The position numbers were made by a program, and so were the translations under genes. Of a stretch of DNA of 64,000 nt, positions 8,638 through 56,655 are shown in pieces (positions within the stretch are counted from its first letter, which is position 1; the number at the start of each line of letters is the position of its first letter). The notes under the pieces were generated by a model that worked only from the letters and a program-made list of their open reading frames with translations, did not search any database and was not told the origin of the DNA. The DNA comes from Ktedonobacter sp. (GTDB taxonomy: Bacteria > Chloroflexota > Ktedonobacteria > Ktedonobacterales > Ktedonobacteraceae): assembly GCA_041156125.1 (NCBI GenBank), contig JBEVTI010000008.1:63659-127658 (forward strand), given 5' to 3'.

Positions 8638-9906
8638 ATGCTACATAAGGGAAAATTGCTGGCAGCCCTGCACGCGAAACGGGGACAGTTTAGCGCTTAT
8701 GATGGATCGTTTGGCGACCAGTTGAACGCGTATCGCCACGCGTTAGAGACGCTTTATCTGGAATATCCTTCAGGAGAGCAACTGGCTTTTGTGCTGCCGC
8801 CGGATCGCAAGGGTTTACCGCCTGCCGGAGCGCGTCCCAGTGTGGAGTTTGACCGCTGGCTGGTCTACGCTCCACATCACGACTATCATGGCCCGCTCTT
8901 TCCATTTAATCATGAGTTTGCCAATCATGAACAGGCCCGGCATTGGGCCGAGTGTATCGAGGGCGTGACGACGATTGCTGTCGATGGCAGTCAGCTCCAG
9001 CCCTGGCGCGATGCCTCGATTCCTGTGGCCTTGATCCAGGTGGGCCTCTTTGTCAATCCGCACGCCCGCGGCAAGCCCTATACCAAAGATGTGTTTATAG
9101 AGGTGCTTTCTCCTGACGAAATCGCCGAGGCGTCAAGCACGGAAAGCGAGGACCCGGATAGCTATCCTTATTCCGAGATGCAGGTCAACCTGCGGCGCTA
9201 TCAGTTGGAAGTGGAGACACTGCGCCGCCAGATGGAGCAACACGCCCATAGTCGGCGCGAGGGCGAACCAACTCACAGCCCTGTCGTCTTCTTCGACGGT
9301 TCGCTTGTCGTTTCTTTCGCGGTGACTATGCCCGAACCATACCGCAGCGAATATATCCAGGCCGCGAAATCCCTGCTACAAACCTCGGAGGAGCAGCGTG
9401 TGCCGCTGGTGGGCTTTATCGATACCAGCTATGCTCGTGATATGATTACTATGTTACGCCGCCTGGACGCGAACCAGGCCAGGCCGGCTTTACGCGAAAC
9501 CAAGCGTATTCACGACGCGATACTCTGGCAGGGCCAAATGCGTTGGGGCGACCGCACGCCAGCTATGATCTGCGCGCGTGGCGATATTCTGGAGGACTAT
9601 GGCCCCTATCGCGAAAGTGTCGCATTTTGCTATATGCAAACCACCGCTCGCCGTCCGCCTGCCCGTCTGGAATTTCCGCGCTGGCTACTCGATGATGGCC
9701 TGCTTGAACCCATGCTGGATGCCGTGCGCGCCGAACTAATCGCTGGCAATGGCTACCCTTACGCCATCGAAACTGCCGACGCGGTAGCTGTGATCACAAT
9801 GCAGGATCGCCAGGAATTCTATGCCCAATTCCAGGAGTTTATGCTGCGCCAGGGCATGAAGTTCACTTTCTCGAATAAATCTGTCAGTAAAAGCAGAAGA
9901 CGCTAA
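8638..9906 (+). CDS. nurA: NurA-like 5-prime to 3-prime nuclease (RNase H-like fold)
   Basis: Two DGS motifs characteristic of NurA (IAVDGSQL and VVFFDGSLVV) plus C-terminal GYPYAIETADAVAVI resembling the NurA YPYxLxxA[HD]xxA motif; start set at ATG 8638. Confidence 0.65.
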   Translation: MLHKGKLLAALHAKRGQFSAYDGSFGDQLNAYRHALETLYLEYPSGEQLAFVLPPDRKGLPPAGARPSVEFDRWLVYAPHHDYHGPLFPFNHEFANHEQARHWAECIEGVTTIAVDGSQLQPWRDASIPVALIQVGLFVNPHARGKPYTKDVFIEVLSPDEIAEASSTESEDPDSYPYSEMQVNLRRYQLEVETLRRQMEQHAHSRREGEPTHSPVVFFDGSLVVSFAVTMPEPYRSEYIQAAKSLLQTSEEQRVPLVGFIDTSYARDMITMLRRLDANQARPALRETKRIHDAILWQGQMRWGDRTPAMICARGDILEDYGPYRESVAFCYMQTTARRPPARLEFPRWLLDDGLLEPMLDAVRAELIAGNGYPYAIETADAVAVITMQDRQEFYAQFQEFMLRQGMKFTFSNKSVSKSRRR

Positions 9907-36145: not shown

Positions 36146-38885
36146 ATGGCTTCGTCAGTACAAACACAGCCCCCATCCGCGGGGCAAACGCTTTTACCGC
36201 CTACATTGATGCTGGCTGGACAGCGAGCACGCAAAACCTGGAGTTTGCTCTTGTTGATCGAGCTTGGCTTGCTAGGCGCAGTGCTGCTAGCCTGCGTCGT
36301 GCCATTATACACCAATATTACCCTGACCGCTGCGCTGCGCACGATGTTAAATGGACAGGATTCCGCGCTCGTTGTGAGCACTACGCCTCGTTTGCTCTCA
36401 GCGTCGATCATTGCCCAGGCGGGACAGATGCTCAATAAAGAGATAACGCGCACACTGGGCACTGATGTGGACGTGATGCAGTTTGCTATTCACACTCAGC
36501 AGTTACCGCTTTTATCCGCCGGTCCTCATGGCTCTTTACAAGCAGTCCCGGCGGACATGAACCTGGTTAGCGCGGACTTAAAGCAGGCTACTGCCCATCT
36601 CAAGCTAGTCGCGGGCCACCTGCCAGATCCCGCCAATCCAGAGCTTGAAGTCGCGCTTACGCCCACGACCGCCCAGGCGCTGCATGTCAATATTGGTGAT
36701 ACGCTGTATATGCACGTTGACTTTACCGATGTCTATACAACTATCTATTCACAGATTCTGAAACTGCATCTGAGCGGCCTGTTTACGCCTGACGCGAATG
36801 ACGCTTCATTCTGGCATGGCAATGATTTCGCGCCATCATATCAACAAGGGACACATTTTTATGCTTTGATGCCTGATGAAACCCTGCTTAATACATTCAC
36901 CAGTTTTTCTAATGCCGCAGGCACACAGCATCACGTCTTTGCCTCTCCACCCACCGTGCTATGGTATTATCACTTTAATTCAGCACATCTAACCATTAAC
37001 GACCTGAATGCATTTTTCTCCGGCATTCAGCAGGTGCAGTTTGACAACGCCAATAACTCCAATCTGCAACAAGATCCTTATCTTCTGCAGACTCAGACCT
37101 TTCTCTCTTTGCCAGATACGCTTAATGGGCTGGTCCAGCGGGCTACGGTGATTGCTGGCAGATGTTTGCGGGACGCGATCAGGGCGCGCTGAACAGCTTT
37201 ATTGAAGATCCTGTAGGGATAGCGCAGCTTGCCGGTCCTTATGCTCTGCTGGCTATCGCGGTCGCGTTAATCACGCTGGTCGTGTCCATCTGGACAGCCG
37301 CCAGGCGCGATATTGTCTCACTACGCCAGTCCAGCGCTCGTTCGACACAGCGTCCGCTCTGGCAGCGCCTGCGCCTGGATGTTATAGCCGCAGTCATAGC
37401 ACTGGTGGGCTTTGGTGCCTCGCTCTACCTGCTCAACTCAAACACGCTGGATAGCCAGCTCTACTTAATGCTTCTCTCGCCGCTAGCCCTACTTCAAACC
37501 CTCTTTCTCTTGCTGGCCGCGCTATTGATCTTCTTCCGCTTCTATCCACAGATCATGCGCTTTGGCACATGGCTGGCAGAACGCCGGCGCGGCGCGCCTC
37601 CCATCCTGGCGCTGGCCCAGATTGCTCGCGCGCCGCGCCAGCCAATCAACATGACCATGTTGCTCGCCCTGACCAGCGCTTTCGCAATCTTCTCGCTGGT
37701 CTTTACCGCCTCGCAGACGCAGCGCGTCCAGGATGTGGCCAGCTACCAGGTCGGCGCGGACTTCAGCGGCGCTATCCCCACTCCCAGCTTCTCTGCGCGA
37801 GATTTACAGGGCATGACGCAACGCTATAATCAGTTGCCGGGCGTGCTTGCCAGTTCAGCAGGCTTTATACACCAGGCCCAGGCTACGGCTGGCCTTCATC
37901 TCTCCATCGCTTTCCAGGCCATCGATAGCAGCACCTTTGCCGCAGCCGCCACCTGGTCCGCGCAGGACAGTCAACAGTCACTCGCCAGCCTGACACAGCA
38001 GCTCCAGCAGCAGAGCAGCGTGGCCGATCCGCAAGGAGCCATTCCGGCCATCGTTGATGCCAATACCTGGAACACCTTGCGCAGGGCGCGATTTTTATCC
38101 TGCAATTCCCAGATATCAAGCTCGACCGTTCATTCACTTTGCGAGTGCTTGGCGAGGTGCAACATATGCCTACTTCTAGCAATAGCGCGCTACCTGGCGT
38201 GCTTGTGGACTACACTGCCTTTGCCCATGCTTACGCAAACGGTATCACACTGAGCGGCACAGGTATCGCGCTCAATTATGTCTGGCTACATACACGCACT
38301 GACGCGCATTCCCTGGCCACTATACGCGCTCTGCTGAGTACTGGCGATCTGCGCCTGGCGCCTCTCTACGATCGCAGTGCCATTGAGGCCGCGCTCTACG
38401 CCGACCCGGTCTACCTGGCGCTGAGTGGAGAACTGGAGTTGGGCGCGTTTACAGCTCTATTTCTGGCATTGCTCGGCTGTCTTGTGGCTTCCTGGCAAAG
38501 CGCGCGCGCCCGCCTGAGCAACTTTGCCACCCTGCGCGCCCTTGGTGCCACTCCGCGCCAGGTTACAGGCACCCTGGCCTGGGAACAGGCCATCATCTAT
38601 ACCACGGCGCTTCTGCTGGGTATTCTCATTGGTTCTCTGTTAGCCGCGCTCAGTCTGCCCTCGCTCGTGCTAACCAGCGTTCTGCCCAGCCAGCTCAGCG
38701 GCAGCATTAGCAACGCCAGCTTCTACGCCGCGCCGTTCATTCCACCACTGCAAATCGCCATCCCCCTCTCGCTCTGGCTGATCCTGGCTGCTCTACTTCT
38801 CAGCTGTCTGCTTGCACTTAGCCTGATGGTCACAAAAATCGCGCGCTCCTCGCTCAGTCTGGTGCTCAGGTTGAGCGAAGATTAG
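36146..38885 (+). pseudogene. FtsX-family ABC permease (double FtsX/MacB-like) split across three reading frames
   Basis: ORFs 36146..37192, 37162..38253 and 38139..38885 each carry FtsX-like TM/ECD segments, lie in frames 2, 1 and 0, and overlap by 31 and 115 nt, implying at least two frameshifts. Confidence 0.5.
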
Positions 38886-40784: not shown

Positions 40785-43700
40785 CTATGTCATTATGTCT
40801 GTTTCATTATCCTGCTCTTCGGTAGAAGGCTGAGACGAGATCATAGCGGCAAGGCGATCTCGGGTTATTTGTGTGTCCATATGCTCTGGCCCCAGCACAC
40901 GCTCCTGGAGAGCGAGGATACGTTTGTAGATAGAGCTTTTTTCATTCTCTCGATGTTGACGGTGGTAGAGCATTGCCAGAGCGTTGAGGGAGTATATGAG
41001 AGCAGGATGATCGAGGCCGAGAATGCGTTCTTGCGCTTTTATTCCCTGCTGAAGCACGCTTTCAGCTTGTTCATACTGACCTTGTTCTATATACAACCTG
41101 CCGAGTTGGCTGAGCGTTCGCAATGTGTCGGGATGCTCGTGTCCGAGAAGACGTTTCTGGATGCTGAGGGTTTGCTCAAGCAGGTTCGCGGCCTGTTCAT
41201 ATTGTCCCTGCTCAGTATAGAAACTGCCAAGGTCGCTCATGCTACGTAGGGTATCAGGGTGTTCATTTCCTTGAGCGACCTGGCTCATGGCCAGTGCCCT
41301 CTTATAAAGCATCTCTGCGTTCTCAAGGCGTCCCTGATCGTGGGCTAGCCTGGCCAGATTATGCACAGTTTGCGCGGTGAGAGGATGTTCTGGTCCCAAA
41401 AATTGTTCGCGGATAAGCAATGCACGTTCATATAATTGTCTGGCTTGCTCGTATTTCCCTTGTGCTCGATACATCCCGGCAAGGTTGTTTAAACTCTGGG
41501 CTGTATCGGGATGGGTGTTGCCAAGGACTCGCTCCCGTACTGCCAACACTCGTTCATATAACGGTTGAGCTTTCTCAAACTGTCCTTGTTCCCGATAGAG
41601 ACCAGCCAGATTATTTAAACCACGCAACGTATGTGGGTGTTCCCCGCCAAGCGTTTGTTCCCAGAGTTGATTGGCTTGCTGAATTAACGGTTCTGCTTCC
41701 ACATATCTGCCTTGTTCTCGATAAAGCCCTGCCAGTGTGTGAAGTGTTTGGACATGGTCGGGATATTCTGGTCCTCGTATGTGTTGCCAGATTGCCATTG
41801 CCCGAAGCAGTAAGGTCTCGGCTTCCTGATATTGCCCCTGTTTGCGCGCCAGGAAAGCCAGATGCCCAAGGCTACGAGCTGTCTCAGGATGCTCAGGGCC
41901 TAAGATCTGCTCTCTTAATGCCAATACGTGCTCTAGAAGCTGTCGTGCTCGTTCGTAGTTTCCCTGTTCGCGATAGAGCCTTCCGAGCGTCATCATCGTT
42001 TGTATGGTTTCAAGATGGGCTTTTCCCAGGACTCGTTCACGAATAGCCAATGCTCTTGCGTAAAGCGTTTCTGCCTGTTCATAATCTCCCTGAGCTGCTG
42101 TCAGTTCAGCAAGATTATGGATGGTTTGTGCTGTTTCTTTCTGTTCTGTGCCTAAAACCCGTTCGTAGAGAGCAAGTGACTGGCGCAGTAAAGGCTGTGC
42201 TTCCTCAAAACGTGCTCGCCTGAGAAGAAAGTAGCCTGCTTGATTGAGAAGATAGGCTAGATCTGCCGTTGCCTGTACCGTGTCATGCCTGCTCCACTGG
42301 GCAGCCAGAAGCACATGGGGAAGCAAGCGTTCACAACGGTCCCAGTTGCTGACTTCTATGATGACGGGAAAGGCTCGCGCAAGCAGGAGCGTGACTCTCT
42401 GTACCCAGTTTTGTTGCTCCTCCATATGCAGTGATGTTCGTACCACACTCTGAACAAGCCGATGGATGCCAAGAGTCTGGTGGAATGCGTCACGAGTGAT
42501 AAGCGAGTAGGCTCGTAAGGCTTCTATGGCTTTTTCAAAGAGAAAACGATTGCTTACCACTGGTGAGAGCAACGGACCCAGCATCTCTCCTCCTTGCATA
42601 AGAAGGGCTTCATCAATGGCATCGGGATGCAAGAACGCGCAGACCTGGAGAAGGGCAACAGCGGCGGGATTGCGAGCTTCGACGCGTTGAAAGGCGAGTT
42701 GCCAGGTCGTCGCTACTGGTGCAGGATGATATTGTTCTTGCCCACGATGCTCGGCAAGCAAGTCAAGTTGATACTGATGATAGATTTGTATGTATACATC
42801 TAGATTCATGCCTGTGGCTTCCAGATAGGCACCCGCCTGGTCGAGCGCCAGCGGCAATACCCCCAATTCCTGCGCTAACTGTAGGGCCAGATGTTGCTCC
42901 TCGGCAGGGGCGTTTTCAAGGGGATCGTCGGGGAGGAGGCGTCCAGCACGTCTGAGGAGCAGCAGAGTAGCCTGAGCAGGCGTGAGACCTTCGAGCGTGA
43001 GGATATGAGCAATGCCGAGACGACGCAATGCTGTTGCCTGGGTGGTAAGCAAAATGTGTCCAAGAAGGAGAGAGGGAAGAAAGGGGAGACAGAGATCTGG
43101 CTCGTTGGCATTGTCCAGGATCAAAAGCCAGTGCTCATGATTCTGTAACCAGGTTTTCACTGCTCGAACAACGATTTCCTGCCTGGGGTCTTTTTGCTGT
43201 GGCAGATCGAGTACTCGTGCTATTTCCGCATATGATGCATACAAGGTCTCGGCATTTTCTGCTGAGACCCAGAACACGGCCTGATAGTGCTGACGAAAGC
43301 GATACGCATATTCAATCGCAAGTTGTGTTTTGCCAATGCCACTCAATCCTGTAAGCGCCTGTGCAGCGTGCGAGCCATTCGCGAGCTTTGCTTGAAACCA
43401 GGTATGTAGACGGTTCAGTAACTCTTCCTGACCAAGAAAAAAGGGATTGCGTGCAAAAGGGAGATGCCAGATGAGAGTAGATGTGTTCTGTGGCAGGCGC
43501 AGGGTGAGAAGGAAGAGATCTGCGAGCATGCGGCGCAAACCGGCTGTAATTTCAGCAAAGGCACGATCAATATTTGTCCATTCTGTCAAAAACGTTGCAT
43601 CAGATGGCAAGGGATGGAGGCGAGCAAAAGGAGCATCTTCCCAGTCAACAGGTCGAAGCAAGATAGGAACGACACGCACGCCATTTGTTTGTTCTCGTGC

Positions 43701-43967
43701 CAACGCCTGTTTCATTTGAGTGCTATAGCAATAATCGGATGCGAGGAAATCGGGACTAATCAGTAACAGAATAACAGAAGCACTTTGTAAGTAGCTATCA
43801 ACAATCTTTTCCCAGTCTTCCCCTGCCTGGATAAGTCGAGGATGCCAGGTGGTAATCAGGTTTTGCCGTTGAAGCAATGCGAGATGTTTCTCTAGTTCTA
43901 GCGCCCAGGAGGTATCCTCTTGTGCATACGCATAAAAAATAGCAATGGGTTGGTGTTGTTCTGGCAT
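40785..43967 (-). CDS. TIR - NB-ARC (STAND P-loop NTPase) - TPR repeat protein
   Basis: N-terminal TIR-like IAIFYAYAQEDTSWALELEKHL...ASVILLLISPDFLASDYC; P-loop GLSGIGKTQLAIEYA and Walker B WLLILDNANEP; more than 10 C-terminal TPR repeats. Confidence 0.8.
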   Translation of the reverse strand: MPEQHQPIAIFYAYAQEDTSWALELEKHLALLQRQNLITTWHPRLIQAGEDWEKIVDSYLQSASVILLLISPDFLASDYCYSTQMKQALAREQTNGVRVVPILLRPVDWEDAPFARLHPLPSDATFLTEWTNIDRAFAEITAGLRRMLADLFLLTLRLPQNTSTLIWHLPFARNPFFLGQEELLNRLHTWFQAKLANGSHAAQALTGLSGIGKTQLAIEYAYRFRQHYQAVFWVSAENAETLYASYAEIARVLDLPQQKDPRQEIVVRAVKTWLQNHEHWLLILDNANEPDLCLPFLPSLLLGHILLTTQATALRRLGIAHILTLEGLTPAQATLLLLRRAGRLLPDDPLENAPAEEQHLALQLAQELGVLPLALDQAGAYLEATGMNLDVYIQIYHQYQLDLLAEHRGQEQYHPAPVATTWQLAFQRVEARNPAAVALLQVCAFLHPDAIDEALLMQGGEMLGPLLSPVVSNRFLFEKAIEALRAYSLITRDAFHQTLGIHRLVQSVVRTSLHMEEQQNWVQRVTLLLARAFPVIIEVSNWDRCERLLPHVLLAAQWSRHDTVQATADLAYLLNQAGYFLLRRARFEEAQPLLRQSLALYERVLGTEQKETAQTIHNLAELTAAQGDYEQAETLYARALAIRERVLGKAHLETIQTMMTLGRLYREQGNYERARQLLEHVLALREQILGPEHPETARSLGHLAFLARKQGQYQEAETLLLRAMAIWQHIRGPEYPDHVQTLHTLAGLYREQGRYVEAEPLIQQANQLWEQTLGGEHPHTLRGLNNLAGLYREQGQFEKAQPLYERVLAVRERVLGNTHPDTAQSLNNLAGMYRAQGKYEQARQLYERALLIREQFLGPEHPLTAQTVHNLARLAHDQGRLENAEMLYKRALAMSQVAQGNEHPDTLRSMSDLGSFYTEQGQYEQAANLLEQTLSIQKRLLGHEHPDTLRTLSQLGRLYIEQGQYEQAESVLQQGIKAQERILGLDHPALIYSLNALAMLYHRQHRENEKSSIYKRILALQERVLGPEHMDTQITRDRLAAMISSQPSTEEQDNETDIMT

Positions 43968-44299: not shown

Positions 44300-45676
44300 A
44301 TGAATCGGCATCCTTATAAAGATCGCATCCCTGAAATTATCTGGGAGCTTGTGTTTGGCTCATTGCGTAAGGCAGGACCGCTTCTTCCTGGTCCTGATTC
44401 ACGTACCCGACATATCAGCTATACGCACGAATTATTGATGCTCTTAGATATAGATTTTCATCGTTGGCCTCGCGTGACAGTAACGGGGAGCAAAGGGAAA
44501 GGCTCCACGGCGGTTTTATTGGCAAGTATTCTGCAAGGGAGTGGCGAGCGTGTGGGATTGGTGAGTAGTCCAGAAATGCGTCGTTTCAATGAACGTATCA
44601 GGATTGATGGGACGTGCGTTTCTGACGATATGTTGGTGTGGGCTGCAAACCGGATTGCCCCTGCCGTCAGATCCCTGATAGAGCGTATTCAACCACCTCA
44701 TTACCTGGGTTCAGGAGGAGTTGTGCTTGCTCTGGCAGCCACCCTTTTCGCGGAAGCAGGCGTATCAGCCGTGGTTGTGGAGGCAGGACGTGGAGGAGAG
44801 TATGATGAGGCACGGCTGATTGAAGCGAATGTTTCCGTACTTACACCTATCATGTTAGAGCATGCCGATAAGTTAGGATCAACGACGCAGGCCATCGCCC
44901 ACACCAAAGCATTGATTACGTTTCCAGGGAGTCCTCTCGTCACCGCGCCACAAATAGAAGAAGTCCAGAAAGTGATTGAGGATGTTGGGAAAGAGCTTCA
45001 GAGTGAGGTCCACTCGGTCGTCCAGGAGATGAGCCTGGAACATGTCACGAATGAGCGCATGGGTGTTCGTTGTGATCTCCAGTTTGGTGAGCATGCCTTT
45101 CAGAATCTCTTGATCTCTCTCCCAGGATTACATCAGGCTGAGAATGCAGCTACTGCGATCCTGGCTGCATTCCAACTCAAACGTATTGCCGGAACAAACT
45201 GGACCACTGAGGGTATCAGCCAAGGATTACAAGAGGTTTCCTGGCCAGGTCGAGCGCATATGCTTCAGCAGGAGCCCTGGGTTCTCCTTGATGGAGCAAT
45301 CAATCGAGAGGCCGCTGAACAAATTGCCACAATTGTGCATGTGCATCCGGCAAAGAGGCTGACGGCGGTCGTGTGCGTGCCTAAACCGAAGGATCTGGAA
45401 GGTCTGTGTGCAATCATTGGTCCGCTTGTCACCACGCTGATCCTCACCAAAGTTCCTGTGCATCATCTGGCATGGTACGAGAATGCCTCTGCAATCGCCT
45501 CCCAATGGTGTACTGATGTCAGAACCATCGATGTTCCCGAAACAGCTTTCCACTATGCCCTCTCACAGGCTGGACCAGACGAAGGGGTGCTCTTGCTCGG
45601 GACTCAATCATTCCTGGGAACAGCATTGACGTTTTGGGATGTTGATACCTGTCGCGTTTGGCAAAAGCACGCGTGA
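44300..45676 (+). CDS. FolC-like Mur ligase family protein (folylpolyglutamate/dihydrofolate synthase-like)
   Basis: VTGSKGKGSTA P-loop, SPEMRRFNERIRIDG, DGAINREAAE; start uncertain (ORF track 44105; ATG 44300 gives canonical N-terminal length). Confidence 0.6.
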   Translation: MNRHPYKDRIPEIIWELVFGSLRKAGPLLPGPDSRTRHISYTHELLMLLDIDFHRWPRVTVTGSKGKGSTAVLLASILQGSGERVGLVSSPEMRRFNERIRIDGTCVSDDMLVWAANRIAPAVRSLIERIQPPHYLGSGGVVLALAATLFAEAGVSAVVVEAGRGGEYDEARLIEANVSVLTPIMLEHADKLGSTTQAIAHTKALITFPGSPLVTAPQIEEVQKVIEDVGKELQSEVHSVVQEMSLEHVTNERMGVRCDLQFGEHAFQNLLISLPGLHQAENAATAILAAFQLKRIAGTNWTTEGISQGLQEVSWPGRAHMLQQEPWVLLDGAINREAAEQIATIVHVHPAKRLTAVVCVPKPKDLEGLCAIIGPLVTTLILTKVPVHHLAWYENASAIASQWCTDVRTIDVPETAFHYALSQAGPDEGVLLLGTQSFLGTALTFWDVDTCRVWQKHA

Positions 45677-45901
45677 TCCATGCATCCAACAACATGTCCC
45701 ACATCTTGCGTCACCTGAGCGTACCAGGGACGCAACTCAGTAGAAGTGCCGCAGGGTTGTTTCCACGATTGTCGAGCCTGCTCAGATCCCGACATCTCAG
45801 GAAGTCAGACAGCGCATCTGTAAGCACTTTGGCTGTGAATAAGTCGAGTGGCTGACGTAAAGGGCTGCGTCCTACGCTAATACAGCCTTCTCCTTCAGCT
45901 C

Positions 45902-46138
45902 TTATGCCTCAGGTTTTTCTTGTCTCTCTGGTAGTAACGCCTCATCATCATAATACAGATCTTCCATTGGGACGTTGAGATACGCTGCTACTTTGGCGAG
46001 TGTCGCGAACGTGGGTGTGTAGGTAGGATCGTTGACCATGCGTCGAGCAAGAGTAATAGGCACATCTGCGGCACGCGAAAGCTTTCCTATGCTCACGCCC
46101 TTGTCTTTCAGAACGTCTTTTACCCTTAATCGGTACAT
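45902..46138 (-). CDS. small XRE-family HTH transcriptional regulator
   Basis: HTH_3-like LKDKGVSIGKLSRAADVPITLARRMVND; AAGGAAGAG RBS before ATG. Confidence 0.7.
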   Translation of the reverse strand: MYRLRVKDVLKDKGVSIGKLSRAADVPITLARRMVNDPTYTPTFATLAKVAAYLNVPMEDLYYDDEALLPERQEKPEA

Positions 46139-46250
46139 ACTTCTCTTCCTTCTTTCTCTCAGCAGCTTCATTATACCTGGACGCGGCGTTCGGAGAGTAG
46201 TCCCGCTTGGTATGCGCCTTGACCTGGACGCAAAGCAATGATAGTCTCTT

Positions 46251-46283
46251 TCTAGATATCTAGATCTAGTCTAATATCAGACT
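46251..46283. promoter_or_regulatory. cluster of overlapping palindromes (candidate operators) between divergent XRE genes
   Basis: TCTAGATATCTAGA (14-bp perfect palindrome), CTAGATCTAG (10 bp), AGTCTaatatcAGACT inverted repeat, read directly. Confidence 0.45.
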
Positions 46284-46391
46284 CAAAGAGTGACTAATTT
46301 TCTCGCATCACAGAAGCTATGTACTGAGCGGAAAGTAGAGAGTGAGCTTGATCTACAAGTATCAGCGCGTTTTTTCTTTTCGCGTTATTTT

Positions 46392-46444
46392 CTGCTCGAC
46401 AAAGGCGATATTGTCATGGTATGCTCTAGAACATAGAGCGTAGG
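46392..46444 (+). promoter_or_regulatory. 53-bp promoter-like element (TCGACA-18 nt-TATGCT), copy 1, upstream of XRE gene
   Basis: ctgctcgacaaaggcgatattgtcatggtatgctctagaacatagagcgtagg; near-identical copy (3 mismatches) at 50588-50640. Confidence 0.5.
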
Positions 46445-46484
46445 CCAGAATCGTTACTGAGCAGAGTTGAAGAGGGTAGATAAG

Positions 46485-47174
46485 ATGGAACGGGCACAGC
46501 TATCAACGGCCAGGGGCAAGGAACGGACGCTACTCATTGCAGCGCGACATGCCTGTCATTTCTCTCAGGATGAGGTAGCGGCGAAGATCCAGGTGAGCAA
46601 GGTGACAGTGCATCGATGGGAGAGGGAGGGAGATATCCCCCAACCGTTACACCTTCGGAAACTTTGCACGCTTTACGGCAAGACTGCGCAGGAACTTGGT
46701 TTCGCGCGACAAGAGCCAGAGCCTGACGAGGCAGTCGTTGATGTACAGACCATCGACAAGACAGAGCACAATGAGGCTGAGGAGTGCGCGCTGACGATCT
46801 TTCGCCAGCACAACCTGATCTCACGCCTGATGCGCCTTCTCTGGAACTGGCCTTCTGGTGATGCCCGTTATCATCTTGGAATGTCACAACAGGCACTTGC
46901 TTGCTTTGTCAAAATTGACCAGCTTCCCATCGCCCATGAAACCAACCGTGTCGCATCTCTTCTTCACCAGGTCATGGCCGAAGTCAATCGCGGAGACAAA
47001 ACGCACGACCTGGACTTTTGTCTTGAGCGCTGGCAACGGGGCATCCAGGGAGCCATCGCCATGCGGAGCGAACAGACGCTGACAGAAGCAATCCACGCAT
47101 ATACTGCGCTATGCATTGCCTGGCCCGGCGAGAAACGGGTAAAACAGTTGCGCGAGTCGATTATTCGCTGGTAG
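46485..47174 (+). CDS. XRE-family HTH regulator with about 150-aa C-terminal domain of unknown function
   Basis: HTH_3-like FSQDEVAAKIQVSKVTVHRWEREGDIPQPLHLRKLCTLYG; ATG 46485 preceded by GAGGG. Confidence 0.65.
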   Translation: MERAQLSTARGKERTLLIAARHACHFSQDEVAAKIQVSKVTVHRWEREGDIPQPLHLRKLCTLYGKTAQELGFARQEPEPDEAVVDVQTIDKTEHNEAEECALTIFRQHNLISRLMRLLWNWPSGDARYHLGMSQQALACFVKIDQLPIAHETNRVASLLHQVMAEVNRGDKTHDLDFCLERWQRGIQGAIAMRSEQTLTEAIHAYTALCIAWPGEKRVKQLRESIIRW

Positions 47175-47445
47175 CAGCCAATTTATCAACCCAGCAGGGT
47201 CTCTGATTGCCCTGCTGAGTTTTTCTTTACATGCTGTTACTCGCTATTCCTCGCGAGGGGAACAAGATGTAAAGCGAGTAACACAATAACGGTGCGTTGT
47301 ATATCTTCCATCAAAGTGATTTAAGATCCCTTTAAATTACTCTGAGCTAGAAAAAAATACTTGCTATGAAGTATTTGTTATGTTAATATAAGTCTATCTA
47401 TAAATAAAATACAGAGCAGAAGCGAGTTTTGCATAGGTCATCTCC

Positions 47446-50400
47446 ATGAAGAATTTTCAAGAAGGCCAGATATTTGGGAATTATCGACTGATCGAGCTTA
47501 TCGGTAAAGGTGGCTTTGCCAGCGTCTGGAGATGTGAGCATATTCATCTTGGCGTCAAAGTGGCGATAAAGTTTCTGAGCGACATGGATAGCTTCGGAAG
47601 GGTGAGTTTTCTCCAGGAAGCAAAGATCATAGCCACACTTCGTCATCCAAACATTGTTCGCTTATTGGATTACTCGGTGCAAGACAATCAGGCGTACCTG
47701 GTTATGGAATATGCTCTTGGTAGCCTGGGCCAACGACAAAGCACACAAGAATTGTTGGATCTCGCAACTGTTGTTTCCTATGTGAAGCAAATGGCTGCGG
47801 CACTTCAGTATGCTCATAAGCAAAATATCATTCATCGTGATGTCAAACCACAGAATATGCTTATAAGTGAGAGCGGTAATATCTTGCTCAGTGATTTCGG
47901 CATTGCGATTGCAAGCGCTAATACGAGCGAGAGCGGTGAATTAAACACGGGTTCTATGGTTGGCACTGCTCATTTTATAGCCCCTGAACAGATTCTGGGT
48001 AAACCCCGCCGGGCGAGTGACCAGTACTCTCTGGCCATTTGTGCCTATTTCTGGCTATGCGGAACCTATCCTTTTCAAGGATCAATCTCTGCACTGATTG
48101 CTCAGCACATGCATACACCACCCCGCCCGCCGCTAGAATTCAACCCGGCTCTACCCTCTTCTGTAGGAGATGTGTTGCTGAAAGCACTGGCTAAGAAGCC
48201 CGAAGATCGTTTTAGCAGTGTGGAAGATTTTGCCAAATCTTTAGAATTGGCCTGTTCTGGCCAGGGTATCATCCCTCAAGTTCCCGCAACTACTCCGTAT
48301 CAGGCTACTGGGATAGCCACACACTATTATTCACGAAGCACCAATATTGGACCGATAAATGTTTCAATAATACCTACTTCCGCTAGTCTTAATGCCACAA
48401 AACCAGTACAAGTATCTACAATCTCAGCACCAGCCAGACAGCATTCAAACTTAGGCTTACGCTTCTTTACTTATCTGTTAGTAATGCCACTACTTATACT
48501 GCTCACACCGTTTCTACTGCTTTATCATTATTCTATGCAAATTTGGCGTTCGACAAGAAGAGCTCATCGTCCCAATCCCATACAGCCAGGGCGGGTAATA
48601 GCCATCCTGGAGCTACTTCCGCTACCACAAAATTTCTGGCCAGCCAGGCTATTGAGCGGGAAAGCAGCATCTCTAGCACCACCATTACCAGGTGATGCTA
48701 TTCAGAACTCCTCCCGGCTAGCCAGCGTACCATTATTGGCCAGTGGTCAGCATAATGCTTCTTGGGCGAAAGCCGCGTGGATGCATACAGCATCTTTTCT
48801 AACAAAGGGGCCACCTTCTTTATCCACTTTAGCAGATCAGAGTACGCTCGTGCAAACATTGCCTGGCAAGGATGGCTTTCTTGACGAGTCACTTCAAAAC
48901 CCGGACGCGCAGCCCCCAGAATTGGCCAGTGTAGACAAGCAGGCACCTCCAATCTATCACTCGCCCGAAAGTTTACAACCCGAGGAACGACCAGATAGGT
49001 GGAGCAGGGCATCCGCGCGCAAAAACTTTTGCATTCTGCATCATGACAAAGATCGCAGTTGGGCTGAATGGATTGCCTGGTTGCTTGAAGATGACGGGCT
49101 TAGTAGCATCTTGCCGGAATGGGACTTCCGCCCGGGTTACAGAGTTGACCGGGAGACACGCAACGCTATGAGTCAGGCAGAGCGGATAATTGTGATTATC
49201 TCACCCGATTATCTGGATGTGAGCAATGATCAATGGGGAATCGTCTTTAATAGAGAGAGAGTCCGCCGAGAAGGGATGATATTGCCCATCATTGTAAGAG
49301 AATGCAACTCTCCCTTAAAAAAGCCACTCGATACACTTGTCTCCATCAACCTCGTCGGTCGAGGTGTGTTTCACACAAGCGAGAAGCTGCTCAAAGCTGT
49401 GCGCCTGAATCGCAGTAAACCGACATTGGCGCCGGCCTTTCCATTACCCAACCAGGATGATAGCTCGCTAGCAACTCGCAAGCTGGATCGCGCGGACAAC
49501 CAGCAAGATACCCCGCCACGCGGGCTTGATATTATAAGTAGCTCTAATCCTAAAGTTACAACTACGCCTACTGAGCGCTTTGATACAGGTATCTCATCTC
49601 CTCAAATAATCGAGCAAATTAAAACCGCTTTCAGTCAGGAAGACTGGTTAGATGTCATTCGCAAAGTCCGTCTTCTCATTCAAGACTCGACACCTACAGG
49701 TATTTCCTGGCAGATTTATCGTATGCAAGCGCTTGCTTATCATTCTTTGGGGCAGATGGCAGAGGCACATGGCGCTCTAGAAGCTGCTCTCGCCATGGTG
49801 AACGATAAGAAAGAACGTCTCGCCCTTCTCGACGAGTATACAAATAAGCTTGCTTCGCTGAAACACTGGTCAGAAATGCTTCCATATGCGAAGGAGGCAT
49901 TAACTCTTGCACCTGAGGATATCCGTTGGCAAGTATTACACGAACACATTACCACTCATCTACAACGAGAAGCCTTCGGCCTGGAAAGGAGCCAGGGATT
50001 TGACCAAGCGCTCCAGCAGAGTGATGACAAACAAAATCATCAGAAAACGTCCGCAGAACATATAATATCCTTTCATACACAGTTTTCTAACCCTGAGGAT
50101 ATGAAAACTATGATTATATCTGATAAGACAATTAACATTTTTATTGCCTACGCTCTTGATGACAAAGAATTATGCACTCGTTTAAAGCATCAATTGATTC
50201 CACTAGCCAATCAATCTCCATTAATCATCTGGTATGACCATGAAATAGTTCCAGGTAAAGAGCGTGTAAAGATTATGGAGAAGCGCCTTACATCGTCTCA
50301 AATCGTCATTCTGTCCATAAGCGCGGCCTTCCTGGCTTCAGAATACCATCAGAGAGAAATGAGGCTCGCATTAGAAAGGTACGAGGCGAACACAGCAAGC

Positions 50401-50574
50401 ATAATTCCCGTTCTCTTACGACCCAGCGACTGGGAGAAAACTTCACTGGGCAATTTCCAACCGCTTCCCCAAAGTGGTCTACCAGTTACGACCTGGCCCA
50501 ATACTGATGAGGCTCTATTAGATATTGTCAAAGGTATTCGCCAGGCAGTCGAAGAACTTCAAAATACTCTTTGA
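47446..50574 (+). CDS. Ser/Thr protein kinase - TM - TIR - TPR-like - TIR multidomain protein
   Basis: Kinase: GKGGFASV, VAIK, HRDVKPQN, DFG, APE. Hydrophobic LLVMPLLILLTPFLLLY. TIR-like 1 around CILHHDKDRSWAEWIAWLLED...IIVIISPDYL. C-terminal TIR-like 2 IFIAYALDDKELCTRLKHQL...IVILSISAAFLASEYHQRE. Confidence 0.8.
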   Translation: MKNFQEGQIFGNYRLIELIGKGGFASVWRCEHIHLGVKVAIKFLSDMDSFGRVSFLQEAKIIATLRHPNIVRLLDYSVQDNQAYLVMEYALGSLGQRQSTQELLDLATVVSYVKQMAAALQYAHKQNIIHRDVKPQNMLISESGNILLSDFGIAIASANTSESGELNTGSMVGTAHFIAPEQILGKPRRASDQYSLAICAYFWLCGTYPFQGSISALIAQHMHTPPRPPLEFNPALPSSVGDVLLKALAKKPEDRFSSVEDFAKSLELACSGQGIIPQVPATTPYQATGIATHYYSRSTNIGPINVSIIPTSASLNATKPVQVSTISAPARQHSNLGLRFFTYLLVMPLLILLTPFLLLYHYSMQIWRSTRRAHRPNPIQPGRVIAILELLPLPQNFWPARLLSGKAASLAPPLPGDAIQNSSRLASVPLLASGQHNASWAKAAWMHTASFLTKGPPSLSTLADQSTLVQTLPGKDGFLDESLQNPDAQPPELASVDKQAPPIYHSPESLQPEERPDRWSRASARKNFCILHHDKDRSWAEWIAWLLEDDGLSSILPEWDFRPGYRVDRETRNAMSQAERIIVIISPDYLDVSNDQWGIVFNRERVRREGMILPIIVRECNSPLKKPLDTLVSINLVGRGVFHTSEKLLKAVRLNRSKPTLAPAFPLPNQDDSSLATRKLDRADNQQDTPPRGLDIISSSNPKVTTTPTERFDTGISSPQIIEQIKTAFSQEDWLDVIRKVRLLIQDSTPTGISWQIYRMQALAYHSLGQMAEAHGALEAALAMVNDKKERLALLDEYTNKLASLKHWSEMLPYAKEALTLAPEDIRWQVLHEHITTHLQREAFGLERSQGFDQALQQSDDKQNHQKTSAEHIISFHTQFSNPEDMKTMIISDKTINIFIAYALDDKELCTRLKHQLIPLANQSPLIIWYDHEIVPGKERVKIMEKRLTSSQIVILSISAAFLASEYHQREMRLALERYEANTASIIPVLLRPSDWEKTSLGNFQPLPQSGLPVTTWPNTDEALLDIVKGIRQAVEELQNTL

Positions 50575-50587
50575 ACGAGCGGCATCC

Positions 50588-50640
50588 TGCTCGACAAAGG
50601 CGATACTGTCATGGTATGCTTTGGAACATAGAGCGTAGGT
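50588..50640 (+). repeat. 53-bp promoter-like element, copy 2, 13 nt after kinase-TIR stop
   Basis: ctgctcgacaaaggcgatactgtcatggtatgctttggaacatagagcgtagg. Confidence 0.5.
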
Positions 50641-50918
50641 GAAAAATCTACGCGAGTATATCATCCAGTAAAGGGTGGTACCAAAGAAACGCGGCATAGC
50701 CTTCACAGGTTATGCTGTTTTTTGTTCCCGCTCGTTCTATTTTGTTACTCGCTCTGCCTCTGGCGGGTAACAAAATGTAAATCAGTAACATAATGATTAT
50801 AAGCTGAATATAGTCCGCAATCGCTATTTCTGGGTATTTTCATCTATACTCTCTCATGGTGCTACTTACCAGTCAAGTCTGTTTGATTGGCAGGTAGATC
50901 TCGCAGCGATGGCTGCCC

Positions 50919-51352
50919 ATGCCGTCGCTTCGTTCGGGAGAGATCTGTGAAAGAGGGAAATTCTTGAGCGAGCAGAATGGTTTAGCTGGTCCCTCTCCAA
51001 TTCTGTGGCGTCTTATCCGAAGAGCTTTCCATCGGCCTCAGCTCTCTCCAGACTTTGTTGAGTCTCACACACGAATCGCTACACAAAGGATGAAGAGCGT
51101 CAAAGTGAACAATAACCAGAAGACTCTTATCGAGCAGATACGCAAGGAACTCGGAGCCTCTGAAGACACGGAGCATCTCGTTGATTGGCTCATCGATCTC
51201 TGGTCCACATTTGAAATCCTCAGCGACCGCTTTGGAAAAATCAGAGCGCTCCAGATCGTCATTGCGTCTGATCCGTTGCCGCAGATGAGGACGCAAGAGG
51301 CGCGACGTTCGCGTGAGGACTGTCTCCCACTTCTCATGGAAAGGATATTCTT
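50919..51352 (+). CDS. hypothetical small protein (only the N-terminal part of ORF-track 50919..51590 looks protein-like)
   Basis: MKSVKVNNNQKTLIEQIRKELG...ILSDRFGKIRALQIV looks globular; the 3-prime part overlaps the methyltransferase in another frame and is R/S-rich. Confidence 0.2.
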
Positions 51353-51895
51353 ATGGCATTCCTGCAGTGGCCGTTGCGCGGCAAGAAATCTGTCTCACAG
51401 CCTCAAGTGTGGGTGCGCACAGAAGCAGCGCAAACCCGGCGTCGTTACCTGGAAGAGACAGACTATCCGCTTCCCAAAGACGAGGGGGAAAAAAGTCGGC
51501 TGGACTTTCAACATCACGCGCTCAATCTCACGCCTGGCAACCAGTATCTCGCGCCTCTTCCGCAAAAAGTGCGTACGATCCTTGATGTAGGAAGTGGGAC
51601 AGGTATCTGGCCAGCAGACATGGCACGCCTCTTTCCTGAATCGCTGGTCCTCGGGTTGGATCTGGATACCGAACTGTTCAGCAAAAACGTACCAGCTAAC
51701 TGCCTGCTTCGCGCGGGCAATATCCTCACAGGATTGCCATTACCAGATGCCATTATAGAGTTCACTCATCAACGTTTCCTCGTGCTGGCCATCCCCGACG
51801 AACATTGGCCAAAGGTCGTACGTGAACTGCGGAGATCATCAAATGTGACGGAGTTCCAAAATTGGGGTAAAATCACAGTTTTACCGTTGCAGTAA
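51353..51895 (+). CDS. class I SAM-dependent methyltransferase (UMTA/LaeA-like N-terminal region)
   Basis: RRYLEETDYPLPKDEGEKSRLDFQHH then motif I ILDVGSGTGIW and LGLDLD. Confidence 0.65.
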   Translation: MAFLQWPLRGKKSVSQPQVWVRTEAAQTRRRYLEETDYPLPKDEGEKSRLDFQHHALNLTPGNQYLAPLPQKVRTILDVGSGTGIWPADMARLFPESLVLGLDLDTELFSKNVPANCLLRAGNILTGLPLPDAIIEFTHQRFLVLAIPDEHWPKVVRELRRSSNVTEFQNWGKITVLPLQ

Positions 51896-51995
51896 GAGAA
51901 CAAAGCGTTCTGACAGAAGAATGAAGGCTTCACGCCACTCGCATTCCCACGCATCTAGATCAGGAATCCTCCTGGTACTCACAGGCAATAGGCCT

Positions 51996-52093
51996 GTTCC
52001 AATCTCTACCGAGAAGCCGCCCCTCTATCCACCGTTATTGGAACGCCGTTTCAACATCCTTATCACAAGTTCCAATCTCTACCGAGAAGCCGC
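51996..52093. repeat. two identical 25-bp direct repeats separated by a 48-nt spacer
   Basis: gttccaatctctaccgagaagccgc at 51996-52020 and 52069-52093; spacer contains inverted partial copy attggaac. Confidence 0.5.
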
Positions 52094-52337
52094 TCCTCCT
52101 CGTAGCATCGCGCAGTAACTTTGTTTGACTCGCGTTCCAATGCAGCGGAGTATACATGCTCGCAGTTCACAGCGTCTTTCAACGCCAATCGCCCAGCGGC
52201 ATGACATACATCACGCGAGATTGCAGCGTCCCTCTCCATCCATCGTGAGGCTAGCGGGGTATCCCTTATAGCAAATGAGCATCTTTAAGTCAGGTATTCT
52301 ACAGCAGTTTCCAGTTGTAGAAGTATCCCGCCTGGCA

Positions 52338-52835
52338 TTATAAACCTCTGATCTGCATCAGCGCCGCTTTTAATTGCAGGTAGACATTATCCAGGTGATC
52401 TGGCATAACCTTGATATCGGCAATGACTGGCATAAAATTGGTGTCGCCATTCCAGCGAGGTACGACGTGGAGGTGCATATGATCGGCGAAGCCGGCTCCG
52501 GCAACTTTGCCTTCGTTAATGCCCATATTGAAGCCATCGGGCTTCATAGCCAGGCGCAGGACGCTAAGGGCCAGTTGGGTCTGCGACATTAGCTCCGCCA
52601 GGGTTTCAGCGTCAAGCAGTGAGATACTGCCAGCATGCTTGTAAGGGGCAATTAACAGGTGGCCGTTATTGTAGGGGTAAAGATTGAGCATAATAAAACA
52701 TCGCTCACCGCGATAGAGAATACGGAATTCCTCATCTGTGTACGCGTCCGGTTGCGTACAAAAAATGCATGCGTCTGATCGTGGAGTCTGCGGCGTAATA
52801 AAAGCCATACGCCAGGGCGCCCATAGATTTTCCAT
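52338..52835 (-). CDS. HIT (histidine triad) family protein
   Basis: HMHLHVVPR histidine triad and upstream NNGHLLIAP. Confidence 0.75.
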   Translation of the reverse strand: MENLWAPWRMAFITPQTPRSDACIFCTQPDAYTDEEFRILYRGERCFIMLNLYPYNNGHLLIAPYKHAGSISLLDAETLAELMSQTQLALSVLRLAMKPDGFNMGINEGKVAGAGFADHMHLHVVPRWNGDTNFMPVIADIKVMPDHLDNVYLQLKAALMQIRGL

Positions 52836-55512: not shown

Positions 55513-56655
55513 GTGGTGTTAGAGCGCAATCAAGAGGGTAAGAGGCAAATTGTGGAAACAGGTCGGGTTATTCATGGGCGTTATTTGCTACAACGCCTGA
55601 TTAAGCAGACAGCTTTTTGCTGCGTTTACCAGGGCATGGACCAGAGGCTTAAGCGCGCGATAGCTGTTAAATCGGTGTTTCCCGCCCATATCACGGTCTA
55701 TCGTACAGCCATGAAGATGACGGCAAATTTCTCCCACCAGCATATTCTCGGCCTCTATGACCTGGTAATTGAGCCTGAAGCTCTATATGTGGTGCAAGAA
55801 TATGTTGAAGGGGAGAGCTTTGAGACGCTGCTTCAAGCCCAGCTAAGTCCTTTCGAGATCGCCGAGGCCGGCTGGCAAATGTGCCTGGCCCTGATGTACG
55901 CAGGCAGTTCATCGCGCCGCGTCTGCCATGGAGATCTTACGCCTTCCGTGATTATCCGCGAATCCTCCGGGACGATTAAAATCAATGATTTTGCTTTGCC
56001 TACCGACGCAGTCTATTTTGAGAAATGGAGCAGCATGGGCGGAGAAGGAGTCGCCTTGCTGGAAACGGAGATGGCCTGGGGTCAGCAAAGCGAGGAGCGC
56101 AAGGCTGATGATACGCGCGCTGTGGGCTTGCTACTCTACCAGTTGCTCACCGGTATGCTGGAACCCCAGGTTGATGGACGCCTGCGCTTTTCACGCGGCA
56201 CGCCACCAGAGTTATGCGAAACTCTCGCCCGCGCTATCGTTCGCCAGCATCCTCAGAATATCAATACACCAGAAACACTTTACGCCCAACTCAAGGTGCT
56301 CGCAGAGGCGCTAGAACCGGCTCCAGCCACAGTAGAAGAACCATTGATACGTCAGTTCTCACCCGCCGGCGCAGGTAAGATGGGCTCCCCATCCCCCCTG
56401 CCATCTAGAGATGCCGAGCGTAACGCGCGCAATCTCTCTTCCTACAGCGGTCAACTCCCCCGCATTGAAGCGTTATCCTCAGATCCCACGGTCGCTAATG
56501 TTCCCTTCATCGCTTCCAGGCAACCGCTGCAGAAGCCTTTCGCGACCAATTTCAATAAACCTTCACCGATGCTGATTATCCTGCTGCTCGGCCTGATAGC
56601 TTTTGGCTTCTTTTTCGCAGTTGGCTACTTTCTAGGCCATATGCTGATTCCTTAA
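55513..56655 (+). CDS. protein kinase-like protein with degenerate catalytic motifs (likely pseudokinase), C-terminal TM anchor
   Basis: Kinase fold cues (GRYLLQRL, AIAVKSV, HGDLTPSVII in place of HRDLKPxN, NDF in place of DFG); no Gly-rich loop; C-terminal LIILLLGLIAFGFFFAVGYFLG helix. Confidence 0.6.
   Translation: MVLERNQEGKRQIVETGRVIHGRYLLQRLIKQTAFCCVYQGMDQRLKRAIAVKSVFPAHITVYRTAMKMTANFSHQHILGLYDLVIEPEALYVVQEYVEGESFETLLQAQLSPFEIAEAGWQMCLALMYAGSSSRRVCHGDLTPSVIIRESSGTIKINDFALPTDAVYFEKWSSMGGEGVALLETEMAWGQQSEERKADDTRAVGLLLYQLLTGMLEPQVDGRLRFSRGTPPELCETLARAIVRQHPQNINTPETLYAQLKVLAEALEPAPATVEEPLIRQFSPAGAGKMGSPSPLPSRDAERNARNLSSYSGQLPRIEALSSDPTVANVPFIASRQPLQKPFATNFNKPSPMLIILLLGLIAFGFFFAVGYFLGHMLIP

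Follow-up and report, generated by a model that had tools for sequence, protein, structure and literature searches.

How a Ser/Thr kinase and two TIR domains would work together in a single bacterial polypeptide, and which of them would control the other, is the question raised by a gene in a 64,000-nt stretch of DNA (the window; contig JBEVTI010000008.1, positions 63,659–127,658) from a Ktedonobacteria-like Chloroflexota soil bacterium represented by a metagenome-assembled genome (MAG). Bacterial TIR domains are understood almost wholly as NAD+-cleaving enzymes that are switched on by STAND NTPases, cyclic-nucleotide sensors or, directly, phage proteins. The open reading frame (ORF) analysed here encodes a 1042-aa multidomain TIR signalling or conflict protein in which a kinase stands in place of the usual NTPase switch, an arrangement that is recurrent in databases and uncharacterised. 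The family couples TIR domains to a eukaryotic-like Ser/Thr kinase and pairs a conserved degenerate TIR with a canonical one. It provides a natural system in which to test whether phosphorylation controls TIR assembly, and possibly a bacterial instance of the scaffold-type TIR function so far held typical of animal innate immunity.

Domain composition of the kinase–TIR–TPR–TIR protein

From N to C terminus, the protein is composed of a kinase, one hydrophobic helix, a disordered linker, a first TIR domain (TIR1), a middle TPR-like domain and a second TIR domain (TIR2), with the kinase, TIR1, TPR-like domain and TIR2 as its four folded domains. This order of parts in one polypeptide had been proposed in a sequence-only reading of the locus and is borne out by the ORF, the frame of which is intact and without interruption, by the Pfam matches and by a full-length AlphaFold2 model. 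The model was computed with a 27-sequence family alignment (A2) as input and reached a mean predicted local distance difference test score (pLDDT) of 70. The Ser/Thr-rich region 274–334, most of the linker 372–523 and the regions corresponding to residues 655–714 and 846–893 were disordered in it.

The N-terminal domain matched Pfam PF00069 (Pkinase) over residues 13–258 (E 2e-47, 162.2 bits against a cut-off of 31.7). The motifs from which a complete Hanks-type kinase had been called all lie at the expected places, namely GKGGFASV at 20, K42 within VAIK, E58 in helix alphaC, HRDVKPQN at 130–137, DFG at 150 and APE at 179. Residues K42, E58, D132, K134, N137, D150 and T174 are invariant or nearly so across 27 relatives. 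The activation loop (residues 158–170) is Ser/Thr-rich and disordered in the AlphaFold2 model, the rest of the kinase being modelled with high confidence (Table 1). With its catalytic residues intact, the kinase appears active, and as an RD-type enzyme it is expected to be phosphorylated on the activation loop. Profile matches in PADLOC were to PD-T4-6 (E 4e-68) and mad6 (E 2e-66), and the NCBIfam model PknB_PASTA_kin matched the kinase domain only (E 8e-71, 240 bits against a cut-off of 450). Because every NCBIfam kinase match scored far under its equivalog cut-off, we regard this similarity as generic to Hanks kinases.

Pfam TIR_2 (PF13676) was found in two separate stretches of the protein (123.9 bits against a cut-off of 28, E 6.6e-36), and both of the modules previously described as TIR-like have a flavodoxin-like TIR fold. 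TIR1 (pLDDT 55–88) belongs to a class defined by the widespread motif WAEWIAW ... SPxYLxSxFxxPEWAAAF. A scan of a genome collection recovered single TIR1-like domains in many phyla, and no full-length relative; in these comparisons the Glu of ‘EW’ is kept in homologous TIRs of >40 loci, from Methanothrix to Frankia. The corresponding catalytic-Glu position in TIR1 is occupied by Gln596, with a two-residue deletion in the loop just before it. Aligned instead to the TLR15/TLR2 TIR chain (7ylf), TIR1 has Gly598 at this position, and neither alignment gives an acidic residue. Across 19 kinase–TIR–TIR clusters, aligned with the conserved W/F residues of the motif as anchor points, the position is Glu in three, Asp in three and Q, P, R, N, T or A in the others. 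TIR1 is also the best-conserved domain, with 69–71% identity to the closest orthologue clusters P0002–P0004 (P numbers denote retrieved proteins and clusters, L numbers loci), compared with 58–62% for the kinase, 56–66% for the TPR-like domain, 55–64% for TIR2 and 12–40% for the linkers. Because a Gln at the Glu position coincides with the strongest conservation, TIR1 is predicted to be functional but non-enzymatic, most likely as a degenerate, non-catalytic partner. An automatic catalytic-residue table for 276 proteins proved unreliable for TIR1-type domains, its hidden Markov model having shifted the loop gap, and was not relied on. We also dropped the notion of ‘pseudo-TIR + TIR’ as a general module, since stand-alone tandem-TIR proteins keep ‘PEW’ on inspection.

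The middle TPR-like domain is modelled with pLDDT 91–96 and gave weak Pfam TPR matches at residues 755–790. TIR2 matched Pfam PF01582 over residues 912–995 (28.7 bits against a cut-off of 21.3) and the PADLOC ThsB1 profile (E 1e-35). Its family profile matched 38 PDB TIR chains, and PdTIR (3h16) aligned with an E of 1.6e-5 over query residues 9–144. The model of this domain shows regular beta-alpha alternation at pLDDT 93–98. In alignment, Glu971 coincides with the Glu conserved in PdTIR, TIR-STING and Cat1, and 15 of 18 family members have Glu there. Based on this alignment, TIR2 of the window protein is potentially an NADase. The sequence-only reading had cast both TIRs as effectors; this may hold for TIR2, which keeps Glu971, and does not extend to TIR1 with its Gln596, so that the two TIRs are not equivalent.

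The sole hydrophobic segment of the protein (YLLVMPLLILLTPFLLLYYY) has a sequence that is unusually well kept in P0001–P0005. It is followed by a Pro/Ala/Leu/Ser-rich linker (residues 372–523) with pLDDT <50 over most of its length. A database search with residues 331–460, covering helix and linker, gave zero matches, and among the retrieved proteins a local phmmer search confined the helix/linker module to P0001–P0005. We also observed a short conserved hydrophobic motif, NPLLxLLSLLxxPFVxxGR, in proteins that consist only of a kinase, a hydrophobic segment and TIR1 (P0039, P0044, P0045, P0047, P0048 and P0051). This motif resembles the PLLILLTPFLLL core of the window-protein helix, a likeness that may point to a dedicated role, as opposed to unspecific membrane anchoring.

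Distribution of the family and comparison with known systems

Layouts were tallied among 131 retrieved proteins. The combination of kinase, TIR1-like and TIR2-like domains was present in about 19 protein clusters among the listed matches, with or without the TPR-like insert, and further layouts included TIR–FHA–kinase–transmembrane (TM) segment(s) and kinase–hydrophobic–TIR1. In the alignment, P0002–P0006 and P0020 are collinear with the window protein, and the named sources of homologues are Ktedonobacteraceae and other Chloroflexota. An exhaustive HMMER search of representatives with query residues 517–1042 returned 22,613 TIR-containing representatives, among which the collinear TIR–TPR–TIR arrangement occurred only in P0004, P0134, P0006, P0139, P0020 and the truncated P0005. 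This search replaced a word-index search with the same query, which returned 12 proteins, missed known orthologues and was uninformative on distribution. Tandem TIRs (2–6) were found in many proteins, including stand-alone tandem-TIR proteins of ~300 aa; since these exist, the kinase was probably fused onto a pre-existing tandem-TIR module. Our literature searches found no publication on a bacterial kinase–TIR(–TIR) fusion, in agreement with the earlier remark that none was known, although the about 19 clusters make clear that the window protein is not a singleton.

In P0042–P0062, an N-terminal TIR1-like domain that keeps the PEWAAAF Glu is followed by FHA, a kinase and 1–5 hydrophobic segments, which constitutes a separate recurrent architecture. 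Some of these proteins end in an extracellular-type domain, e.g. solute-binding or PQQ, and the layout looks like a receptor kinase with TIR output. A 1027-aa protein from an Actinophytocola sp. MAG (L041, 9338–12421, +) is composed of an N-terminal domain without assigned identity, TIR1-like and TIR2-like domains, a P-loop NTPase (GPSGIGKTT) and a third, C-terminal TIR. Its TIR1-like domain also lacks the ‘EW’ Glu, and its architecture indicates that the TIR1-like/TIR2-like pair is reused with other switches. The called start of P0020 (L054, 9893–12337, +) cuts off the kinase N-lobe. Extending the ORF to a TTG at 9893 regains GGFASVY...VAIK; stops lie directly upstream of this TTG, and strand beta1 may be missing. 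The P0033 kinase–TIR–TIR gene has an NAD kinase gene as its divergent neighbour (L055, 6945–7787, −), which is probably a coincidence because it was unseen at other loci.

TIR-STAND/NLR-like proteins are abundant in multicellular bacteria, where regulated TIR oligomerisation is presumed (Kaur et al, 2020, 2021; PMC7159879, PMC8195603), and the same publications survey the conflict systems of these bacteria, TIR and kinase domains included. They share with the window protein a TIR2-like TIR and TPR-type repeats in one large protein, cytoplasmic in their case and probably so here. The window protein differs from them by a Hanks kinase in the regulatory position, by two TIRs, one of which is degenerate, and by the hydrophobic helix; it gave no Pfam or NCBIfam match to a P-loop NTPase (NB-ARC, NACHT, AAA). 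One STAND protein of this type is encoded 3.5 kb upstream of the kinase–TIR gene (40785–43967, −; 1060 aa; TIR-NB-ARC-DUF7779-TPR). Its N-terminal TIR is TIR2-like (E 6e-26), with a Gln at the catalytic position (DYCYSTQM). A TIR-DUF7779-TPR (TIR-STAND) gene was also identified within 10 kb at the P0006 locus.

Stand-alone TIR NADases and Thoeris ThsB (PdTIR 3h16, AbTIR 8g83, ThsB1 profile) have a common fold with the TIRs described here, and TIR2 shares their catalytic-position Glu. In contrast to these enzymes, TIR1 lacks the Glu and both TIRs reside inside a kinase-containing 1042-aa protein. No ThsA-type partner (SIR2, Macro, SLOG) is encoded within 10 kb on either side of the gene, and the locus is not a Thoeris system. 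The defence and stress kinases PD-T4-6, Stk2, MADS Mad6 and the PknB family have a similar kinase domain, and PD-T4-6 is likewise a single-gene unit. Unlike the window protein, these families are without TIR domains, and the resemblance to PD-T4-6 is one of generic kinase fold only. PknB-type receptor kinases differ further, as the window protein has a reversed charge bias and neither PASTA nor another known extracellular domain. With respect to animal TLR-MyD88-IRAK and SARM1, the kinase and TIRs are here covalently fused, death, SAM and ARM domains are absent, and no orthology is implied. Plant TIRs associated with protein kinases (group 16; Toshchakov & Neuwald, 2020; PMC7075850) also unite TIR and kinase in one architecture. 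These are eukaryotic, fall into a different TIR subgroup and have no described tandem TIR/TPR insert, and are set apart on this description.

Signalling direction and membrane topology

Taking as direct results what the domains are and how they fold, the state of the catalytic residues, the recurrence of the family and the absence of a conserved partner gene, we consider the window protein most likely to be a stand-alone, single-polypeptide signalling or cell-suicide (conflict) protein. Our preferred model, which we put forward tentatively, has the protein in the cytoplasm, tethered to the membrane; its kinase would dimerise and autophosphorylate, thereby controlling the packing of TIR1 and TIR2, and TIR2 would cleave NAD+. 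A cue that arises at the membrane or binds to the TPR-like domain would make the kinase dimerise, whereupon the activation loop and the Ser/Thr-rich linker would be autophosphorylated in trans. Phosphorylation would alter TIR1/TIR2 packing, in which the non-catalytic TIR1 would be a built-in partner of TIR2 or a brake on it, and the assembled TIR2 would cleave NAD+, resulting in depletion or in a signal nucleotide. We infer the kinase-to-TIR direction because the TIR–FHA–kinase–TM(–extracellular domain) relatives, which retain the PEWAAAF Glu, resemble a receptor kinase with TIR output. Such a protein would act in abortive infection or, in a filamentous bacterium, in the regulated death of cells.

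A number of observations weigh against this model. The TIR2 Glu is replaced by Gln in P0002–P0004 as well as in cluster members P0274–P0276. As P0002–P0004 are nevertheless 55–64% identical in this domain, catalysis appears dispensable in the nearest clade, and the predicted NAD+ cleavage is not conserved in it. The betaA motif of TIR2 reads FIAYALDD, compared with the usual FxSYSxxD and with SYSHxD in the family. The predicted template modelling score (pTM) is 0.39 for the full-length AlphaFold2 model, within an overall range of 0.39–0.43, and the placement of the domains relative to each other is therefore not trustworthy. The hydrophobic segment is modelled within one continuous, straight 40-residue helix (residues 332–371, pLDDT about 75–80) and shows no hairpin; such a helix, if it crosses the membrane, would leave the kinase on one side and the TIRs on the other. 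In addition, searches of plasmid, phage and IMG/VR collections gave zero full-length relatives, and no recognisable defence island surrounds the gene at the loci examined.

The Gln substitutions are equally the starting point of a serious rival, drawn by analogy with MyD88-IRAK, in which TIR1/TPR/TIR2 would form a homotypic or TIR-docking assembly platform, the fused kinases would trans-activate one another and the kinase would be the output. In animals, TLR/MyD88 TIR assemblies recruit IRAK kinases. Kinases of the Stk2/PD-T4-6 type likewise serve as effectors. We judge this main rival possible, and somewhat less likely than the preferred model. TIR1 is without Glu in 16 of 19 relatives and yet is the domain under the strongest conservation, and the nearest orthologues, with Gln in both TIRs, are still under constraint; the retention of the TIR2 Glu here and in most of the family, on the other hand, is hard to square with irrelevant catalysis. 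Across the family, the catalytic residues of the kinase vary little or not at all, and the kinase strongly matches PD-T4-6 defence-kinase profiles, though these are generic and no kinase substrate is evident. The upstream TIR-NB-ARC-TPR gene, the TIR2-like TIR of which also carries Gln, and the TIR-STAND gene near P0006 could provide docking partners, but such neighbours are absent at the other loci examined. Doubtful in our view is the more specific proposal that a non-enzymatic TIR1–TPR–TIR2 platform activates the fused kinase by induced proximity and might dock onto activated TIR-STAND receptors such as the one encoded upstream. If it were true, the protein would be the bacterial counterpart, within one polypeptide, of the TLR/MyD88-IRAK relay, and kinase-coupled adaptor (non-NADase) TIR signalling would not be an animal invention. 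The Glu/Gln polymorphism at the TIR2 site among close orthologues makes the choice between enzyme and scaffold directly testable.

The single helix poses a similarly tractable question, whether the tandem TIR module lies inside or outside the cell. Were the helix an N-in/C-out pass as in PknB-type receptor kinases, the TIR–TPR–TIR part would be external and act as a sensor, an adhesion or assembly domain, or a surface NADase, which we find improbable. The one strongly hydrophobic segment of the window protein does separate the kinase from the remainder, and the single long helix of the model, the many related Ktedonobacterial kinases with a kinase–TM–extracellular domain layout (WD40, PQQ, solute-binding) and the six kinase–hydrophobic–TIR1-only proteins listed above, which also place the segment between kinase and TIR, are in keeping with such a pass. 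Yet the positive-inside bias is reversed. Lys and Arg residues flanking the helix number two before and four after. In 10 TIR-bearing proteins they average 1.2 on the N-terminal side and 2.4 on the C-terminal side, as against 4.3 and 1.2 in 26 bona fide related receptor kinases. No strongly hydrophobic segment is present in 11 of the ~19 kinase–TIR–TIR clusters, which are therefore presumably cytoplasmic; they include P0006 and P0020, both collinear with the window protein through TIR1, the middle domain and TIR2. The TIR–FHA–kinase–TM relatives, in turn, hold the TIR on the kinase side. Characterised TIR domains, to our knowledge, all act in a cytoplasm, either the bacterium's own or, for secreted effectors, that of a host cell, and NAD+ is scarce outside the cell. 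Because of the helix-less relatives, the TIR–FHA–kinase–TM layout and the reversed charge bias, the TIRs of the window protein are probably cytoplasmic. The membrane association proposed earlier remains plausible on the strength of the one helix, although a classical pass would put the TIRs outside, where charge bias and helix-less relatives argue they are not. The 28-residue segment may anchor the protein without crossing, as a hairpin or by monotopic insertion, or may be an oligomerisation element. The suspicion that the protein is a chimeric assembly, or that loss of a stop codon joined a kinase gene to a tandem-TIR gene without giving the product an integrated function, arises from the MAG source, from frameshifted-looking ABC-permease ORFs nearby and from the existence of the short stand-alone tandem-TIR proteins. 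It is essentially refuted by three observations: two independent assemblies encode the 1042-aa protein in identical form (contig DAOTTF010000020.1 of MAG GCA_034437995.1 and the Logan assembly of SRR11271805), collinear homologues of 38–57% identity come from other samples, and conservation extends over all four folded domains, with divergence in the linkers. The intact frame, with its own promoter-like and terminator-like sites, likewise speaks against an artefact.

Genomic context and further features of the window

The kinase–TIR gene is flanked by an XRE-type helix-turn-helix (HTH) gene and a methyltransferase gene, amid housekeeping genes. At the five homologue loci examined, the neighbours differ in all and no common partner gene was identified; the upstream HTH gene was considered as a conserved operon partner and rejected, as none of the five loci shares neighbours. 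Hairpins on both sides and a promoter-like site of its own (Table 1) make a monocistronic unit likely. An Rfam scan of 45600–52500 found nothing. We rate the practical impact of the protein as moderate, given uncultured Ktedonobacteria-like hosts and the lack of conserved partner genes.

Table 1. Positions in the window of the kinase–TIR–TPR–TIR gene, its domains and adjacent sites.
Feature	Position (nt)	Strand	Basis or remark
Complete ORF, kinase–TIR–TPR–TIR protein	47446–50574	+	1042 aa plus stop
Hanks-type RD Ser/Thr kinase, residues 11–270	47476–48255	+	Pfam Pkinase; family alignments A1 and A2; pLDDT 80–97
Sole hydrophobic segment, residues 340–367, FFTYLLVMPLLILLTPFLLLYHYSMQIW	48463–48546	+	Kyte-Doolittle (KD) maximum 2.34; alignment; AlphaFold2
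Linker motif LPLPxGFWPARLL, residues 391–403	48616–48654	+	Conserved; P392 and P394 invariant in A1
TIR1, residues 524–655, ‘WAEWIAW’ class	49015–49410	+	Gln596 at nt 49231–49233
Middle TPR-like domain, all-helical, residues 716–846	49591–49983	+	Seven helices
TIR2, residues 895–1042	50128–50571	+	Glu971 at nt 50356–50358
Promoter-like site	47383–47410	+	AT-rich 272-nt gap 5' of ORF; consensus match only
Terminator-like hairpin, 12-bp stem plus T-run	50691–50718	+	117 nt past stop codon
Terminator-like hairpin	47192–47217		After upstream HTH gene

Two pairs of direct repeats lie around the gene. A 53-nt repeat (94% identical) is located at 46392–46444, just 5' of the HTH gene, and at 50587–50639, 13 nt past the kinase–TIR stop codon. 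It is promoter/operator-like (TCGACA-18-TGgTATGCT) and contains an internal GACAA-N8-TTGTC inverted repeat. The downstream terminator-like hairpin lies about 50 nt past the second copy, and a ~100-nt transcript is possible. The shared leader AGAGCGTAGG is complementary to CCTACGCTCT in the ORF around 50146–50156, at the start of TIR2, which may be due to chance. A weaker 50-nt repeat (76%) is found at 47224–47273 and 50732–50781, one copy after each terminator hairpin. The methyltransferase and HIT genes are separated by a gap that contains a 30-nt direct repeat (97% identical) at 51996–52025 and 52069–52098, with a 43-nt spacer. It has two clear copies only, with a possible degenerate third near 52135, and could be a CRISPR-like (clustered regularly interspaced short palindromic repeats) remnant or another type of element.

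At 36146–38885 (+), three successive overlapping ORFs in different frames (348, 363 and 248 aa) jointly resemble an FtsX/MacB-type ABC permease; the frameshifts suggest either a pseudogene or MAG assembly errors. A second kinase-like gene is located at 55513–56655 (+) and encodes a 380-aa protein (Pkinase E 6e-17) with a C-terminal hydrophobic tail. This protein is degenerate, with HGD in place of HRD, DFA in place of DFG and no Gly-rich loop, and may be a pseudokinase.

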